Positions 30,571 to 55,428 of a DNA stretch of 64,000 nucleotides are shown in pieces. The stretch covers positions 32,001-96,000 of the IMG/VR virus record IMGVR_UViG_3300037516_000306; one strand, 5' to 3'. How positions within the stretch are numbered: position 1 is the first letter of the stretch; each line of letters begins with the position of its first letter. Position numbers and translations under genes: made by a program. The notes beneath the pieces are model-generated. The model made no database searches. It saw only the letters and a list, made by a program, of their open reading frames with translations, and was not told the DNA's origin. The stretch is from a virus.

Positions 30571-30785
30571 TGAGTGAGTCAAGTAGAATACTAGTAGAAC
30601 TTGTAGAAGCTCAGGAGAGTGCATTACAAACAGCAAATGAGTTGTTAACTGTAAAAGATGAACTAATAGAACTATTACAAGATGAGATTACATTACGTAA
30701 GAAACAAAATGTTGCTCTATGTGGTGTAATGATAACATGTTTTGTTGTATTTGGATTTATCGCTTCAATATATCGTATATTATGA
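30570..30785 (+). CDS. Coiled-coil protein with C-terminal TM
   Basis: ORF track; hydrophobic C-terminus. Confidence 0.6.
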   Translation: MSESSRILVELVEAQESALQTANELLTVKDELIELLQDEITLRKKQNVALCGVMITCFVVFGFIASIYRIL

Positions 30786-30937
30786 GACGTAGAATACAGA
30801 GAGGCACATTAGTTGGTTCAACTGACAGGTTTAGAGCAATCAAGTCTAGAAGAATGATTGTTGAAGTGTTATATAATTTCAGACATGGGATTATAAAAGA
30901 ACGTACAATAGATGTACGAGAAAGTATTGAACAGTAA
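30782..30937 (+). CDS. Small basic protein
   Basis: ATGA-coupled start at 30782 (MRRRIQRG...). Confidence 0.5.
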   Translation: MRRRIQRGTLVGSTDRFRAIKSRRMIVEVLYNFRHGIIKERTIDVRESIEQ

Positions 30938-30954
30938 ATAATTTGGTTAATTGT

Positions 30955-30993
30955 TTGTTTTATTTATCCCTGTAGATTATATTTGCAGGGATA
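30955..30993 (+). promoter_or_regulatory. Promoter embedded in a hairpin, upstream of tmRNA
   Basis: TTTG-N19-TATATTTG; hairpin TATCCCTGTAGAT/ATTTGCAGGGATA. Confidence 0.6.
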
Positions 30994-31105
30994 TTTATTA
31001 AAAAGGTGCTTGTAACTAATCTTACAAATGATTATATGTCGTACAAGCTAAGTACTATTCGTGAAGCCTTAGTGGTCTTGCATCCACATTAAACTTGCAA
31101 GATTT

Positions 31106-31430
31106 GGGGGTGACTGGTTTTGACAGGTTACCAATAATTAGTACAATCAGCCAGAGAGATAACTGTAAACTAAGGTGAATTGATTAAATGGCAAAAACAC
31201 AAGTCGTGTAGTGTCTCTAGGAGATAACGCACAAGTAGAAGCTAACATGAACAAAGTATTCTCTCTATTGGGAGAAGAAGTTGCTGTAGCAGCCTAAATT
31301 AATGAGATTTCTCTATTAGATTAAATAGAGTGGTGGATTATCTCAAGCCTAGCTTGACCCTAAATAAGCTGTATAAATTGTATTAATGAACGTAGTTTGG
31401 ACAGGAGTTCGACTCTCCTCACCTCCACAA
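31106..31430 (+). ncRNA. ssrA: tmRNA, tag GKNTSRVVSLGDNAQVEANMNKVFSLLGEEVAVAA (31190-31297)
   Basis: 5' GGGGGTGACTGGTTTTGAC; 3' GGAC-AGGAG-TTCGACT-CTCCT-CACCTCCA; acceptor stem with G3:U70; TAAAT-GGC resume context; tag ends AA-stop; helix 2 TTAGTACAAT/ATTGTATTAA. Confidence 0.93.
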
Positions 31431-31431
31431 T

Positions 31432-31460
31432 AAGCCTCTGTAACAAGAGGCTTTTTTATT
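31432..31460 (+). terminator. tmRNA terminator
   Basis: AAGCCTCT-GTAACA-AGAGGCTT followed by TTTT. Confidence 0.85.
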
Positions 31461-31485: not shown

Positions 31486-31632
31486 ATGAAGACAATCACA
31501 TTAAAACCAACTGAGTTCTATCAGTTCAGACAATTAGCATTTGCAATGAGTATTGCATTTGCATGTACAATAGCACAAGGTGTGTATATTGTAGAAGCCA
31601 ATATAGACCAACTTAAACAGTTGGGTTATTAA
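31486..31632 (+). CDS. Small hypothetical protein
   Basis: MKTITLKPTEFYQFRQLA...LKQLGY; A-rich leader; hairpin at 31646-31665 downstream. Confidence 0.6.
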   Translation: MKTITLKPTEFYQFRQLAFAMSIAFACTIAQGVYIVEANIDQLKQLGY

Positions 31633-31981: not shown

Positions 31982-32224
31982 ATGGAAAAAGAAATCACAA
32001 AGAAAAGAATGATGAAAAGAAAAAAAGGTAGAGCTATAAGAGAAGCTTTAGAACAATTAAACATAGGAGAAGGATTTAATAAACAACAATTCATTGTATC
32101 TGTATGGGGAGATGTTGATTATTTCTTAGAGCGTGCTTTTGATGCTATGTTCTGTGAAATTAAAAAAGAGTTTGCTGATAGAAAATTTAAATCTATAAAG
32201 AAAGTAGTAACTAGAATATCATGA
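31982..32224 (+). CDS. Hypothetical basic protein
   Basis: ORF track. Confidence 0.6.
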   Translation: MEKEITKKRMMKRKKGRAIREALEQLNIGEGFNKQQFIVSVWGDVDYFLERAFDAMFCEIKKEFADRKFKSIKKVVTRIS

Positions 32225-46078: not shown

Positions 46079-48376
46079 ATGATTTTAGAAAAACAGACAG
46101 AAGCAAACGTCCTAACAGAAGGACAATCACAAGAGAGTATAGGAATGTCACTAGACTTAGATTCTGCACAGATATTGATGCAGATGTTAAGTAAGAATTT
46201 ATATTCTGATGACATAGGTTCTGCTATCCGAGAATGTGCATCCAATGCACTAGATAGCCATAGAAGAGCTGGAGTGGACACTCCTATCATTGTATCATTT
46301 AAATCTTCTACAGATTACAACTATGAATTTTGTGTAGAGGATTTTGGTATTGGTCTAGATGCTGATGATGTGAAGAACATTATCAGTAAATATGGTAAAT
46401 CAACTAAGCGTAACAGTAATACTGAGCTTGGTATGATGGGACTAGGTTTCAAAGCACCTCTTGCATACTCTAGTAGCTTTTACTTCGTATGTAGAAAAGA
46501 TGGAATGGAACGTAAGTACATGATGTATGAAGGAGAAGATACTAACACTATCGATCTTTTGTATGAAGCAGAAACATCAGAAGCTAACGGTGTAAAGATT
46601 ATCATACCTGTTAAATACAGTGATGCATATCAGTTCCGTAAGAAGATTAAAGAGCAACTATGTTATTTCGAGAGTGTATATTTTGATGTACCAGATGATT
46701 CTACAATCACTAATGATTTTGTTATCTCTAGACATACACACTTCCAGTTCTCTGAGATGAGTACAGATGATAAGTTACACATTTGTTTAGATAATGTGTA
46801 TTATCCTCTAGACTTTGAGAAGGTGGGTATTGATAGAATTGAGTTCCCTGTAGCTCTTAGATTTTCATTGAGTGATGGATTATATCCAACTCCTAATAGA
46901 GAGTCTCTTAGATACACTCAGGAAGCTAAACAAATCATCTTAAACAAACTTGCTGATGTAGCAGATTATTTTGTTACTAAGTATAATGAGCAATTAACAG
47001 AAGGAGGTGACATTAAATCTGTAGTTAATTATCTAGAGAAGAATGGTCATAAACTTACAATGGCTGATGGTAGTTCAAGAAGAATTGATGATTTCATGAA
47101 GTATTCTAAAATACAAATTGCTGTTCCAGAGATAGAAGGTGTTAACCTGATTAACTTTCCTTCTTTATACAAATTGCGTAAATCTGAGATGTTAAATTAT
47201 GCATTTCCTTCTAAGTTCTTATTGAGATATAAAAGAATGCAAGATACAGATAAACATTATGTATATGGATATACAATAGAAAGTATTTGTACTGGTCATG
47301 CTAAAGTGTGGGTATTTAATGATAGAATTCCTGGTATCAAGAAAGATTATCTAAGAGCTACATGTGAAGAAGGTAAGTACAATTTTATGGTTAAAAGAAA
47401 TGGTCCTATGAAACTAGGAATCCCTGCTAAATTTGACAGTAATACTTATTATCATTTACTAGAGCTTGCTAATTATTCAAAAGATCAGTGGAGAGCTGTT
47501 ATCAAAGAATATCAACACATCATCTCTTTGATTGAAGCACAGTTTATTGATCTTGATGAAATGGTTGTACCACAATCTTTTATTGATAGCAAGAAGAAAG
47601 CTAAAGTGGCTTCTACTACATCAACTGGTAAGAGACTTAAGATTCAGGGAGAGATTGTTTGTAAGAAAGCTGTTGAATTGATGCGATATAATGATGGTAG
47701 AAACTGTAAGTTTGATTCTCAATTATATAAGTTAGAAGATCTTGAGAGTGCTAAGCACCTGAAGGTTTATGCTCACCATGATGACTATTTGAAGCTTGAT
47801 GCTTTGTATGGAATTATGGGTAAACAGAAGATGGAAGTAATTACATTTTCTGCTAGAGAACTTAAAATAGTAGAACAATTAGACATTCACAATTTAATAT
47901 CATACGACAAATTTATGGAGGGGAAAACAGCACCATTTAAAAGAATAGTTACAGCAACACTTATTGATAACTTAATGAGCAAATACAGATATGTGTTTGA
48001 GAAATCTCAAATGTTTAAACATACATCTACTGACTTTTATAAGAAGTTGGAAGAATTGGCTGATTACAAGCGTGCTAATTATGTATGTGCAAACAGTGAT
48101 TTGAACAAATCTATGTTAGCAGTGGCTGAAGAGCACAAACTATTTGATAATAACATCTATCCAGAGTATTTACAGATGATAGATATATTGAATAAACTTA
48201 CATTTATTAATCCTTTAGCTAAGACTATGGGTTATTTTAATGAAGATGATCAGATGGTAGGTGTAGTGACTGATTTATTCAAGTATTACAAACACAGAGT
48301 AGATTTTAAACATTACAACATTAAAATTAATGATGAAGTGTTAACAGAAGAAACAATAGAAGATTTAGTAGATTAA
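46079..48376 (+). CDS. rIIA: rIIA-like protein with GHKL ATPase domain
   Basis: LYSD...IRECASNALDSH, DFGIG, GKSTK, GMMGLGFK and TPNRESL motifs. Confidence 0.85.
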   Translation: MILEKQTEANVLTEGQSQESIGMSLDLDSAQILMQMLSKNLYSDDIGSAIRECASNALDSHRRAGVDTPIIVSFKSSTDYNYEFCVEDFGIGLDADDVKNIISKYGKSTKRNSNTELGMMGLGFKAPLAYSSSFYFVCRKDGMERKYMMYEGEDTNTIDLLYEAETSEANGVKIIIPVKYSDAYQFRKKIKEQLCYFESVYFDVPDDSTITNDFVISRHTHFQFSEMSTDDKLHICLDNVYYPLDFEKVGIDRIEFPVALRFSLSDGLYPTPNRESLRYTQEAKQIILNKLADVADYFVTKYNEQLTEGGDIKSVVNYLEKNGHKLTMADGSSRRIDDFMKYSKIQIAVPEIEGVNLINFPSLYKLRKSEMLNYAFPSKFLLRYKRMQDTDKHYVYGYTIESICTGHAKVWVFNDRIPGIKKDYLRATCEEGKYNFMVKRNGPMKLGIPAKFDSNTYYHLLELANYSKDQWRAVIKEYQHIISLIEAQFIDLDEMVVPQSFIDSKKKAKVASTTSTGKRLKIQGEIVCKKAVELMRYNDGRNCKFDSQLYKLEDLESAKHLKVYAHHDDYLKLDALYGIMGKQKMEVITFSARELKIVEQLDIHNLISYDKFMEGKTAPFKRIVTATLIDNLMSKYRYVFEKSQMFKHTSTDFYKKLEELADYKRANYVCANSDLNKSMLAVAEEHKLFDNNIYPEYLQMIDILNKLTFINPLAKTMGYFNEDDQMVGVVTDLFKYYKHRVDFKHYNIKINDEVLTEETIEDLVD

Positions 48377-48431
48377 AGAAAGGGGGGAGAAATCCCCTCT
48401 TATTAAAAAGTAACAATTAAAATTAAATACA

Positions 48432-49961
48432 ATGAGCAACAAATTTCTAAGTCTTGACTGGTTCAAGCAAACAGCAGAGAATGCAATAGCTAAAGTGGTA
48501 GCTAACAAATTGGAGAGTTTAATGGAACAAGAAGAACAACAAGCTCCTAATGAAGTGTTTGAGAAACCATTCTTAAACCTTAGATTAGTAAATGATACAC
48601 TAACTGTAGTGTTGAGAGATGGAAGTGTATTGAGTAAGCCTGCAGCAACAGAAGAAGATTATTATGCTATCTCTGAAGCAAAGAGTTTACATGAAATCTA
48701 TGCTATCATTGCTTCTAAAGAAGTGGCAGCTGATGTAGAAGCACTAAGAGCTGAAACAGCTAGAATCAAAGCTTTACAACAGGGTATTCAGTTACTTGCA
48801 GTTCTTCCTGATTTTAGAGTGGAGGGAACAACAGTTTACTTAAATGGTACATCTAGAAGTCTTCCACAATTATTAGTAGAGAAGTTTATTGAAGTGGTAG
48901 ATAAAGTTAGTAATGAACCTTCTCAAGAAGATTTTAATACACAATTAAATCAAGATGATGAGTATGTAGCATTGAAGAACTTCTTCATGTGGTGTTGTCT
49001 AAACCCAAGAGCTGAAGTGGCACATGAGTTATACAGATTCTTAGCAGAGAATTCATTTAGAATTACTAGACAAGGATTTGTTGTAGCATTGAGAAATGTT
49101 GTAACTCTTCATGGATCTCCAGAGCTAGTTCACTTTATCAGTAATGCCTATAACAAGGTGAAAGCTGTATGGAAGAAGAATCCTTCTGAGTACACAGTGT
49201 TCTTAGAAGATGGTGAGTACAAACTTGTACATGATGACAAACTATTCAAAGAAGAAACTCATACAACAACAACATGTCCAGATTGCTTAGGTGATGGTGG
49301 ATGGGAAGATGAAGATAGCTGGGAAGATGGTGAATGGATTGATTGTGAGACATGTGATGGTTCAGGAGAAGTGGAAGAATATACTTACACTGAAACATGG
49401 GCTGTTAATCATGGTGAGAAGATTGGTAGTCTTGTAGATCTTTATCTTGATTTACCTAATAGAGCAGAGAATAGATTTACAGATGATTGGACTAAAACAT
49501 TTGATATCCGTATTGGACAAGTGACTAGTATGCCTAAAGAAGATTGTAACTGGAGTACACAAGATTGTGCTGCTGCAGGATTACACTTTACAGCAGACCA
49601 GATTCACTATGTTGGATGTGGTGATCAATCTGTTATTGTTCTTATCAATCCTATGAAAGTGGTTGGTATTGGTCAACACAAGGGTAGATGCTATGAGTAT
49701 TTACCAATTATGACTGTACCAAGAGAAGAAGCTACCAGAATTCTTCATGATGCTCAGTTTGATACAATACAACTAGATGAAGATTATGCTATTCGTGAAT
49801 TAGAATTCCTTACAGAGAAAGTGAAAGATGGATTTGCAGCTGAGTCTAGAAAGTATGAGTTCAACTTACCAAGTATTTCTGCTGCAGAAATAACTAATAT
49901 TGTTGCAAATCTTAGTGAGATGAAAGCTACGATAAGCAAACGTGTTAGTACAATTAAATAA
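48432..49961 (+). CDS. rIIB: rIIB-like protein with inserted Zn finger
   Basis: Follows rIIA; ELYRFL, ITRQG, CAAAGLH and GRCYEY motifs. Confidence 0.8.
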   Translation: MSNKFLSLDWFKQTAENAIAKVVANKLESLMEQEEQQAPNEVFEKPFLNLRLVNDTLTVVLRDGSVLSKPAATEEDYYAISEAKSLHEIYAIIASKEVAADVEALRAETARIKALQQGIQLLAVLPDFRVEGTTVYLNGTSRSLPQLLVEKFIEVVDKVSNEPSQEDFNTQLNQDDEYVALKNFFMWCCLNPRAEVAHELYRFLAENSFRITRQGFVVALRNVVTLHGSPELVHFISNAYNKVKAVWKKNPSEYTVFLEDGEYKLVHDDKLFKEETHTTTTCPDCLGDGGWEDEDSWEDGEWIDCETCDGSGEVEEYTYTETWAVNHGEKIGSLVDLYLDLPNRAENRFTDDWTKTFDIRIGQVTSMPKEDCNWSTQDCAAAGLHFTADQIHYVGCGDQSVIVLINPMKVVGIGQHKGRCYEYLPIMTVPREEATRILHDAQFDTIQLDEDYAIRELEFLTEKVKDGFAAESRKYEFNLPSISAAEITNIVANLSEMKATISKRVSTIK

Positions 49962-54378: not shown

Positions 54379-55428
54379 ATGGCAGTAAAAAAAGTAGTAA
54401 AAGAGGCTGATAGCAAATGTCTAGCAGCAATCGAAAGTTTAAACAAGAAGTATGGTGTTGGTTCAATTCTAGCACTAGACTCTAAAGCAGGAGGAGATTA
54501 TGATGTAATCAGTACAGGTAGTATTGGATTTGATCATATCACTCTTGGTGTAGGAGGATTTGTAAAAGGTAAGCTATATGAGCTTATGGGATGGGAAGGT
54601 ACAGGTAAATCTACAATTTGTGGTCATGCTGCTGCAGAATGTCAGAAAGCTGGTGGTACTGTATTGTACATCGATGGTGAGCACGCTGTTGATAAGAACT
54701 ATTTCAAGAAACTAGGAGTGGATACAACTAAGATGTTGATTGCTCAACCATCATGTGGTGAGGAGGGTTTCAACATTGCTATGGAGATGATTAATACTGG
54801 AGAGATTGATCTTGTGATCATCGATTCAGATAGCTCATTGATCCCTAAGAAGATGCTTGATGGTGATGTAGGTGATTCTACTATCGGTAGAAAAGCTTTA
54901 TTAAACAGTAATGCATATCCAAAACTAAAGGGAGCTCTATCACAACATAATGTATGTGTGATTGTAATCTCTCAGTATCGTGAGAAGATTGGTGTTATGT
55001 TTGGTAATCCTACAACAACTCAGGGAGGTCATGCTCTTAAGTTCTACAGTGATGTAAGAATAGAAGTGAGCAGAACTCTTGCTAAAGATGGTGATGTAAA
55101 CTACGGTAATATCACTAAGCTAAAAGCTATCAAGAATAAGATGTCTCCTCCGTATAGAAAATCAGAATTTGAGATAGTGTATGGTAAGGGTATAGATGTT
55201 CTTGATGAGATGATGAGTCTTCTTAATGAGTTTGAGTTAGGACGTAAGTATGGTAAAACTATGACTGTAGATGGAACTAAGTATGACTTAGAAGAATTCA
55301 AACAGCTTGTTGTAGACAATCCAGAGTTCTATGATGAACTAAGAGAGAAGATTGTAGCTGCAATCAATCAAACTGATCTTCCTGTTGAGGAAGTGGAAGT
55401 GGAAGAAGAAATTGAGGACGAACTATAA
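54379..55428 (+). CDS. recA: RecA recombinase
   Basis: ISTGS, GWEGTGKST, IDGEHAVD, GVMFGNPTTTQGGHALKFY and KNK motifs. Confidence 0.95.
   Translation: MAVKKVVKEADSKCLAAIESLNKKYGVGSILALDSKAGGDYDVISTGSIGFDHITLGVGGFVKGKLYELMGWEGTGKSTICGHAAAECQKAGGTVLYIDGEHAVDKNYFKKLGVDTTKMLIAQPSCGEEGFNIAMEMINTGEIDLVIIDSDSSLIPKKMLDGDVGDSTIGRKALLNSNAYPKLKGALSQHNVCVIVISQYREKIGVMFGNPTTTQGGHALKFYSDVRIEVSRTLAKDGDVNYGNITKLKAIKNKMSPPYRKSEFEIVYGKGIDVLDEMMSLLNEFELGRKYGKTMTVDGTKYDLEEFKQLVVDNPEFYDELREKIVAAINQTDLPVEEVEVEEEIEDEL

Follow-up and report, generated by a model that had tools for sequence, protein, structure and literature searches.

The window analysed in this study is a stretch of 64,000 nucleotides (positions 32,001 to 96,000) of the IMG/VR viral genome IMGVR_UViG_3300037516_000306, a record of 113,562 bp which is 98% complete according to CheckV. 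At positions 31106-31430 it encodes a transfer-messenger RNA (tmRNA) with a long tag reading frame. An earlier note, made from the sequence of the window alone, had drawn attention to this gene and to its tag of 35 amino acids (aa), and our analysis indicates that the core of this tag is conserved as a peptide in a whole lineage of phage tmRNAs. The leftward genes of the phage record include those for the large terminase, the portal and the major head protein, and the rightward genes those for the DNA polymerase, helicases, UDG, RecA and rIIA/rIIB. The GC skew of the window switches sign near 28 kb, which places the tmRNA at the start of the rightward replication block. The phage is a lake-water virus of Flavobacteria-type hosts. 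The stretch recurs across many lake-water metagenomes, and the terminase shares just 25-40% identity with those of cultured phages (Leptolyngbya phage Lbo-JY46, Cellulophaga phi4:1 and crAss-like phages).

For the comparison with related sequences we defined a Flavobacteriia-phage long-tag tmRNA lineage; the definition is our own and is not taken from the literature. Its members share the signature CAGAGAGAUAACUG-N2-9-AACUAAGGUGAA in the PK1 region and a tag of 24-49 aa with a Q..ANM..V core in frame with a G/D codon. Both are found in the window (PK1 at 31152-31179, and the 35-aa tag with its core). The exact PK1 pattern is present in at least 119 IMG/VR contigs. Among 185,579 species genomes there was one match, in a 4.9-kb contig of a metagenome-assembled genome. 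This contig was rejected as a chromosomal copy, being 100% identical to a viral contig from IMG/VR. The lineage is found almost only in phages, in more than 100 contigs of at least three phage families.

The tmRNA gene, its RNA and its flanks

The gene and its RNA parts are located as follows.

31106-31430, plus strand: complete one-piece tmRNA gene of 325 nt, called by ARAGORN and by Rfam RF00023 and covered by RNA contigs over 31106-31429
31106-31112, plus strand: 5' strand of the acceptor stem, GGGGGUG, which pairs with CACCUCC (31420-31426) and includes G3:U70
31124-31151, plus strand: 5' strands of helix 2, namely H2a (31124-31131), H2b (31137-31146) and H2c (31148-31151)
31152-31179, plus strand: PK1 region with the signature CAGAGAGAUAACUG-ua-AACUAAGGUGAA, a pattern of the phage lineage
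31368-31371 (H2c), 31378-31387 (H2b) and 31392-31399 (H2a): 3' strands of helix 2
31403-31419, plus strand: T-arm AGGAG-UUCGACU-CUCCU, 100% paired with three covarying pairs

The earlier note had named ARAGORN and RF00023 as suitable checks, and both call a tmRNA. ARAGORN finds a single one in the window (31106-31428), and RF00023 matches 31106-31430 over its full model (1-374) with 83.1 bits (gathering threshold 47, E 1e-30). The total length agrees with the approximately 325 nt estimated before. The full structure, comprising the acceptor stem, H2a-c, the T-arm, three helices inside the tag open reading frame (ORF) and two hairpins A and B behind it, was tested in an alignment of 25 short-class relatives. 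In this alignment 94.8% of the cells are paired, compared to 42-50% in slid controls, and 31 pairs are changed on both sides, compared to 6-11 in the controls. All seven pairs of the acceptor stem are formed, with 100% pairing in the 25 sequences and three covarying pairs. Helix 2 is paired in 96-100% of the cells, with changes on both sides in 11 pairs. G3:U70 is present in the window and in all 75 unique relatives, and the intact tRNA-Ala-like domain described in the note therefore stands.

The mature RNA probably ends with the discriminator A (31427) and a CCA that is added to it; the gene itself reads CAA after the discriminator. The note had correctly seen these letters. They are no peculiarity of this gene, however: an encoded CCA is absent from all 75 unique family members and from most of the sampled host genes.

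Contigs from lake metatranscriptomes (four libraries from four studies) cover 31106-31429 with a word depth of 13-69. No cover is seen over 30950-31093, and the downstream ORF is covered at a depth of 2-8. Since a carry-over of DNA would cover the flanks equally, this would point to a tmRNA which is present as an abundant discrete RNA. Illumina adapter sequence abuts the contig ends at 31114/31117 and 31404/31423, and the contigs stop short of the 3' end of the tmRNA. That the window encodes a real and expressed tmRNA is in our view hardly in doubt.

Two terminator-like elements flank the gene.

30965-30993, plus strand: terminator-like hairpin which closes the preceding gene and leaves a leader of 112 nt before the tmRNA
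31432-31453, plus strand: intrinsic terminator-like hairpin with an 8-bp stem, followed by the T-run UUUUUAUUU

Five terminator-like sites were counted in this region, where 0.3 are expected. Of the promoter and terminator which the earlier note had assigned to the gene, only the terminator could be retained, as no Bacteroidota-type -7 box (TAnnTTTG) was found at a constant spacing before the tmRNA. Matches to sigma-70 promoters inside the tmRNA gene were discarded, being irrelevant for Flavobacteriia-type hosts. Among the relatives, tmRNAs directly follow tRNA genes, ORF stops or terminators. In several of these relatives (IMG/VR loci L112, L117, L120 and L011) a tRNA gene precedes the tmRNA by about 30-60 nt; these tmRNAs probably belong to a co-transcribed tRNA array and are no separate unit.

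Reading frame and peptide core of the tag

The tag is defined by three elements.

31185-31192, plus strand: resume context UAAAU followed by the resume codon GGC (31190-31192), to which the consensus resume codon of Rfam aligns
31190-31297, plus strand: tag frame of 35 codons, GKNTSRVVSLGDNAQVEANMNKVFSLLGEEVAVAA, followed by TAA
31232-31270, plus strand: peptide core Q15 to L27 (QVEANMNKVFSLL), with ANM at 31241-31249

As proposed in the earlier note, the context TAAAT followed by GGC opens the long frame, which ends with GCA GCC UAA. Tryptic peptides of a tag of this type would include VVSLGDNAQVEANMNK and VFSLLGEEVAVAA. When the frames are read from the aligned site (UAA[ACU][UC] followed by G[GA]N), all 122 readable copies among the matches listed are open, and they yield at least 82 unique peptides of 24-49 aa. 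None of 85 unique ORFs has a stop in frame 0, whereas the frames +1 and +2 are stopped in all 85, and about 94% of shuffled ORF bodies contain a stop.

ARAGORN sets another frame. It resumes at the GCU of A-N-M (31241), which gives a tag of 18 residues, ANMNKVFSLLGEEVAVAA, and would turn the 51 nt upstream into an untranslated spacer. Such a short tag would agree with Ala as the most frequent bacterial resume codon, with a U at -5 of this site in 79/85 ORFs and with the weak peptide constraint before ANM. However, the comparison speaks against it. The earlier note had asked whether the extension is conserved in frame, and the segment before ANM occurs in eight length classes (5-17 codons), every one of them in whole codons. 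It contains no frame-0 stop in any of the 85 ORFs, whereas the other two frames are stopped in 57 and 27 of them, and a stop is expected in about 55% of shuffled spacers. The A at -4, which is the main determinant of frame choice in E. coli (A86; PMC2481249), is present in 85/85 ORFs at the GGN/GAC site, together with a U at -5 in 84/85, but in only 41/85 at the Ala site. The resume position given by ARAGORN also shifts among the relatives, from 85 to 171. The 30 sampled Flavobacteriales tmRNAs resume at gene position 94-101, in the context uaaau followed by GGC or GAC and at the same distance from PK1, and their tags start with G or D like the phage tags. Based on this comparison across relatives and hosts we prefer the 35-aa frame, which is very probably the one translated, and we consider the 18-residue tag to be most improbable. 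As a practical point, ARAGORN mis-sets the tag in this family of phage tmRNAs.

The core of the tag follows the motif Q-[IV]-x-A-N-M-x-x-V-[FHY]-[SN]-[LI]-[LI]. In 81 aligned tags Q15, A18, N19 and M20 are invariant, and V23, A34 and A35 are conserved to at least 90%. The codons of the invariant residues vary at third positions only (Q CAA/CAG, A GCT/GCC/GCA/GCG, N AAC/AAT), the same is true for the near-invariant V (GTA/GTT/GTG), and the conserved Ser (TCT/TCA/AGC) and Leu (TTG/CTA/TTA/CTT) swap between six-fold codon families. The pairwise ratio of nonsynonymous to synonymous changes (dN/dS) is 0.20 over ANM to VFSLL and 0.21 over the last three residues, compared to 0.81 for the N-terminal part of the tag and 0.67 for its variable linker. 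An alignment of tag ORFs had been suggested before as a test for conservation at the amino-acid level, and in the core such conservation is seen. The substitution pattern argues that the core and the C-terminus of the tag were shaped as peptide by purifying selection. The AA end, regarded in the note as a retained degron, is indeed kept in 61 of the 66 unique full-length tags.

The tags are net acidic, and the helix face of the core is hydrophobic on one side (V-M-V-F-L-V). AlphaFold (AF2) models residues 10-34 as one helix with a predicted local distance difference test score of about 85 in its middle, which is weak evidence for a short peptide. The motif seems to be confined to the tags. A profile of the tags was compared with 1.84 billion representative proteins and gave no genuine longer protein as a possible origin. 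It retrieved 80 clusters, all of them ORF calls of 28-94 aa, which match nearly always at their C-terminal end and are therefore taken as gene calls over tmRNA genes. The same profile had no match among the chains of the PDB (E up to 10).

In part of the ORF, constraint is seen at the RNA level as well.

31214-31224, plus strand: hairpin i, UCUC-uag-GAGA, within the N-terminal extension, 95.7% paired
31241-31290, plus strand: helix iii of 4 bp, formed by GCUA (31241-31244) and UAGC (31287-31290), which encloses hairpin ii (31260-31275)

Hairpin i covaries (U:A to G:C, 13:8), and due to these base-pair swaps the encoded residues co-vary as well (VSLGD / VALGA). Helix iii (GCNA...UNGC) connects the alanine codon of ANM with the penultimate codons. 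Depending on the pair it is formed in 76-85 of 84-85 family ORFs, as U:A, A:U or C:G, and in the short class it is 99% paired. Hairpin ii is 77% paired and confined to a subclade. The N-terminal extension thus appears to be translated and yet largely RNA-shaped. Of the extra amphipathic helix postulated in the earlier note, the conserved middle of the tag holds, whereas part of the extension before it is kept as an RNA hairpin.

The compensatory changes in hairpin i and helix iii, as well as the dN/dS of 0.81 in the N-terminal extension, would also fit a tag that is mainly an RNA element, whose extra 75 nt fold to stabilise or position the mRNA-like domain and whose peptide is largely a by-product. 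The helices would perhaps stand in for lost pseudoknots. We consider this to be quite unlikely. The invariant residues of the core change only synonymously, the six-fold Ser/Leu swaps included, with the low dN/dS given above. Hairpin ii is restricted to a subclade, and the length of the tag shows no trade-off with the size of the 3' domain, as described in the following section.

The compact 3' domain and related tmRNAs

The stop codon ends at position 192 of the tmRNA, about 105 nt ahead of the T-arm and 133 nt ahead of the 3' end. In 28 of the 30 sampled Flavobacteriales tmRNAs 267-279 nt follow the stop; in the other two the tag frame was mis-set by ARAGORN. The shrunken pseudoknot region reported in the earlier note is therefore real, with about half the host length. 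The approximately 70 nt from the stop to the 3' strand of helix 2 fold as two plain hairpins.

31311-31330, plus strand: hairpin A, CUCUAUU-agauua-AAUAGAG, phage-specific and flanked by a conserved UGGUGGA
31343-31357, plus strand: hairpin B, UCAAGC-cua-GCUUGA, 85% paired with four pairs changed on both sides

No pseudoknot pairing that would correspond to PK2-PK4 was seen between the ORF and helix 2, neither by eye nor with RNAalifold. Known tmRNAs tolerate reduced sets of pseudoknots, and the missing PK2-PK4 are for this reason compatible with membership in RF00023. Hairpin A is 99-100% paired, with swaps from G:C to A:U and from U:A to C:G, and its loop is almost invariant. Of 75 phage tmRNAs 35 have this hairpin, and of the 30 host tmRNAs none. 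The RNA contigs carry a compensatory pair in this hairpin (31315 A>G with 31326 T>C). In one of them (run X19) 29 nt of the hairpin A sequence (ATTTCTCTGTTAGATTAAACAGAGTGGTG) are fused straight onto the 5' end of the tmRNA at 31106. This could be a chimera from reverse transcription or assembly, or the trace of a permuted or tandem form.

The phage tmRNA family spans 300-470 nt, and the median tag has 35 aa in each of three size classes. Tag length and size of the 3' domain are uncorrelated (Spearman -0.06). The shrinkage of the 3' domain is thus a subclade trait which is unrelated to the long tag, and the idea that the extension compensates for the lost pseudoknots was rejected.

A 34-nt exact match to window 31306-31339, which includes hairpin A, was found in the human-gut crAss-like phage cr128_1 (MT774392.1; locus L162, 701-734). 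That locus also has a hairpin-B-like stem, and a group I intron (Rfam, 86 bits) follows 60 nt downstream (L162, 798-1067). An intron-split tmRNA was considered, but ARAGORN called none, neither in the sequence as it is nor with the intron excised in silico over a grid of junctions. The element could be a tmRNA that has diverged or been split, or an RNA module that was reused.

Among cultured phages, the FpV4 group (Fipvunavirus), Calle_1, phi38:1 and phi40:1 (Pervagoviridae) and phi14:2 (Crassvirales) share the PK1 signature and the resume context with the window. Their tags are long like that of the window, with the ANM core and an AA, VA or GV end. Their tmRNAs are 360-470 nt long and have larger 3' domains, whereas the window belongs to a compact class of 320-330 nt with hairpins A and B. 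In the FpV4 group the tmRNA region is unannotated. In phi14:2 (KC821624.1), phi38:1 and phi40:1 coding sequences of 'hypothetical proteins' overlie the tmRNA, and several GenBank records thus place hypothetical proteins over the tmRNA gene of this phage family. The tmRNA feature annotated in Calle_1 (MT732432.1) is offset by about 52 nt from the coordinates given by ARAGORN and Rfam. Papers on flavobacterial phages merely count 'one tmRNA' (Calle, PMC8776804; PMC11590407), and no description of an extended conserved tag was found in the searchable papers on these phages.

With the SsrA RNAs of the Flavobacteriales the window tmRNA shares the tRNA-Ala-like domain with G3:U70, helix 2, the position of PK1, the context UAAAU followed by GGC or GAC, a first tag residue G or D, a non-polar x-A-A end and a CCA which is mostly unencoded. 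The host RNAs have 389-409 nt, 118-181 bits, tags of 9-10 aa and 267-279 nt after the stop, compared to 325 nt, 83 bits, 35 aa and 133 nt in the window. Their tags are of the GENNYALAA type, in line with the length of about 10 aa that the earlier note had given as typical for Bacteroidota. The sequence of PK1 differs between hosts and phages, hairpin A is absent from all 30 host RNAs, and a blastn comparison of the window tmRNA with host tmRNAs aligned nothing but the tRNA-like ends and the resume context.

Phage-borne tmRNAs as such are already known, with a frequency of about 2.3% among phage genomes (PMC4131195; PMC9004378). In the Bxz1 group of mycobacteriophages, in Bacillus phage G and in the OM43 phage Melnitz they are likewise found without a dedicated explanation (PMC4131195; PMC9004378). 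These phages infect hosts of other phyla, and no lineage-wide extended tag with a conserved core is reported in these papers. The tmRNA of Melnitz is a two-piece, riboswitch-linked RNA, while that of the window consists of one piece. The extended conserved tag was not found described in the papers searched.

Two small proteins are encoded close to the gene. A 48-aa ORF (31486-31632, plus strand) lies right behind the tmRNA terminator and has a low RNA-contig depth. It is conserved with 60-96% identity in 29 related loci, always 3' of the tmRNA; its middle (LAFAMSIAFACTIAQGVYIV) is hydrophobic, and its C-terminal end (...QL..LGY) is invariant. A likeness between the tag core (VEANMNKVF) and the C-terminus of this protein (YIVEANIDQLKQLGY) was treated as chance (hhalign probability 4.6%, 9 columns). 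The second protein (30719-30937, plus strand) is small and very basic, with the core MRRRIxKGTLVGST..RRLIVEVLYNFRxGI..., and is kept 0.2 to 6 kb upstream of the tmRNA in 34 tmRNA-bearing loci including FpV4. Further rightward on the plus strand the window encodes rIIA-like and rIIB-like proteins (together 46079-49961) and the phage's own RecA (54379-55428).

Possible function of the long tag

The phage appears to depend on its host for trans-translation. SmpB (PF01668) is encoded neither in the window, as the earlier note had stated, nor anywhere in the whole record of 113,562 bp. ClpP or a Clp ATPase is not encoded by the phage either, and a weak AAA match, considered as a private protease, proved to be RecA. 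In the hosts, ClpX with its zinc-finger domain and Lon were found in all 26 sampled genomes. The adaptor SspB (PF04386) was found in none of the 41 Flavobacteriales genomes searched; the E. coli and Caulobacter controls were positive. A complex prediction of the tag with the dimer of the ClpX N-domain (from a Flavobacteriales genome, L164:303-482) scored 0.06 against a mark of 0.32 and counts neither way.

We propose that the alanyl-tRNA synthetase of the host charges the phage tmRNA via G3:U70, that CCA is added post-transcriptionally as for host tmRNA genes, and that SmpB and EF-Tu of the host deliver the RNA to stalled ribosomes. Use of the host SmpB is suggested by the lack of a phage smpB. 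Translation would resume at GGC 31190, and the ribosome would add Ala plus 35 residues. Of the three parts of the tag, the start (G-K/N-N) and the non-polar end (VAVAA) resemble the host tag, whereas the insert between them is specific to the phages. The insert would form an acidic amphipathic helix which carries the peptide-selected core. The AA end most likely still feeds a host AAA+ protease. As this end is retained, degradation would still be the end point, and the conservation of the helix argues for a second specific contact. The helix might be a built-in second recognition element that changes the rate or the route of delivery, acting in cis like the proteobacterial SspB adaptor in hosts where SspB was not found. 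Its role as a determinant of proteolysis, or in place of an adaptor, that is recognised by a host AAA+ protease is the best supported of the readings considered, but a tentative one and less likely than not. The earlier note had suggested that the helix may redirect tagged proteins, engage an adaptor or rescue ribosomes when defence nucleases of the host cut mRNA or the host tmRNA; these suggestions received no support from our analysis.

Two known systems follow a comparable logic. In the SspB-assisted tags of E. coli and Caulobacter the logic is bipartite, the C-terminal residues being bound by the unfoldase and the upstream part by a second binder (PMC9382460). There the upstream part is a short extended peptide, whereas in the phage tag it would be a helix of 13-20 residues. 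In the Mollicutes (mf-SsrA of Mesoplasma florum) the tag is also naturally long, and the extra residues accompany a switch of the protease to Lon (PMC9382460). However, the Mollicutes have no active ClpXP and their tag ends with NYAFA, whereas the hosts of the phage keep ClpX and Lon and the phage tag keeps AA. The Mollicutes tag has no sequence similarity to the phage tag, and the latter coexists with the short tag of the host.

The tmRNA could also provide nothing but extra ribosome-rescue capacity during infection, when non-stop complexes arise from the decay of host mRNA, and the content of the tag beyond its degron end would then be irrelevant. Plaque assays with lambda-immP22 indicate that phage growth can need charging and ribosome release, but not correct tagging (PMC2481249). 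The lack of an own protease or SmpB and the position of the gene at the head of the replication block would agree with such a role. A neutral tag would, however, keep neither four invariant residues and a dN/dS of 0.2 nor four times the host length, and the conservation extends over at least 80 clusters at 50% identity in three phage families. We therefore hold this explanation to be unlikely.

Another explanation would see the helix as non-proteolytic. Tagged chains might self-associate or bind to a phage or host structure, or the helix might act in the exit tunnel of the ribosome. Sequestration or some use of the tagged products, and not simply a faster destruction, would be the result. In favour of such a role are the amphipathic helix, whose hydrophobic seam runs along one side and which contains an invariant Asn, and the motif, which was seen in no other protein. 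On the other hand, the AA end in 61/66 unique tags argues for degradation as the end point, the net acidic charge speaks against binding to membranes, and no partner was found among the neighbouring genes. Altogether we regard a non-proteolytic helix as distinctly unlikely.

Several points weigh against the proposed account of a working phage tmRNA. No gene is consistently linked to the tmRNA among the ORFs within about 6 kb in approximately 120 loci, where the best clusters comprise 34 and 29 members. Helices i and iii constrain part of the ORF as RNA, so that some of the conservation is not peptide-driven. The pairwise dN/dS values are saturated (dS at least 1) and were calculated without tree correction, and the prediction of a helix carries little weight for so short a peptide. 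The RNA contigs derive from closely related strains (90-99% alike) and, being assembled, cannot give the true ends, the strand, the processing or the CCA status of the RNA. Considering both sides, we place slightly better than even confidence in the whole account of a working phage tmRNA which relies on host factors, the helix included. This estimate leans mainly on what the data show, namely which RNA this is, that it occurs in RNA libraries, which frame is open and that selection acts on the peptide; the charging, the use of the host SmpB and the role of the helix are what we infer.

Trans-translation tags are usually viewed as short and simple degrons, and phage tmRNAs as spare rescue capacity or debris of integration. 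The four peptide-selected invariant residues, the four-fold host length and the presence in RNA libraries indicate that the content of the tag matters to the phage. Judged from the conserved tag, unfinished proteins probably meet a different fate in cells infected by these phages. New in this study are the environmental RNA evidence, the separation of RNA-level from peptide-level constraint within the ORF, the finding that a longer tag does not go along with the loss of pseudoknots, the agreement with the resume context of the hosts, and the combination of hosts without SspB and a phage without a private protease. Cultured pairs make the question testable, namely FpV4 with Flavobacterium psychrophilum, and phi38:1 or Calle with Cellulophaga. 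Should the helix turn out to be portable as a recognition element, Bacteroidota genetics would also gain a new orthogonal degron. A more speculative view, which we find rather doubtful, is that the phages of Flavobacteriia run a private tagging code, in which a helix-bearing tag that is encoded by no cell marks the unfinished proteins of the host, and that the tagged proteins in the infected cell take another route than that of normal ssrA quality control. They might, for example, undergo a self-tethered fast delivery to ClpXP or Lon for the recycling of amino acids, or be captured by an unrecognised host or phage factor. If true, such a private code would be a new viral way to reprogram proteostasis through an RNA gene.

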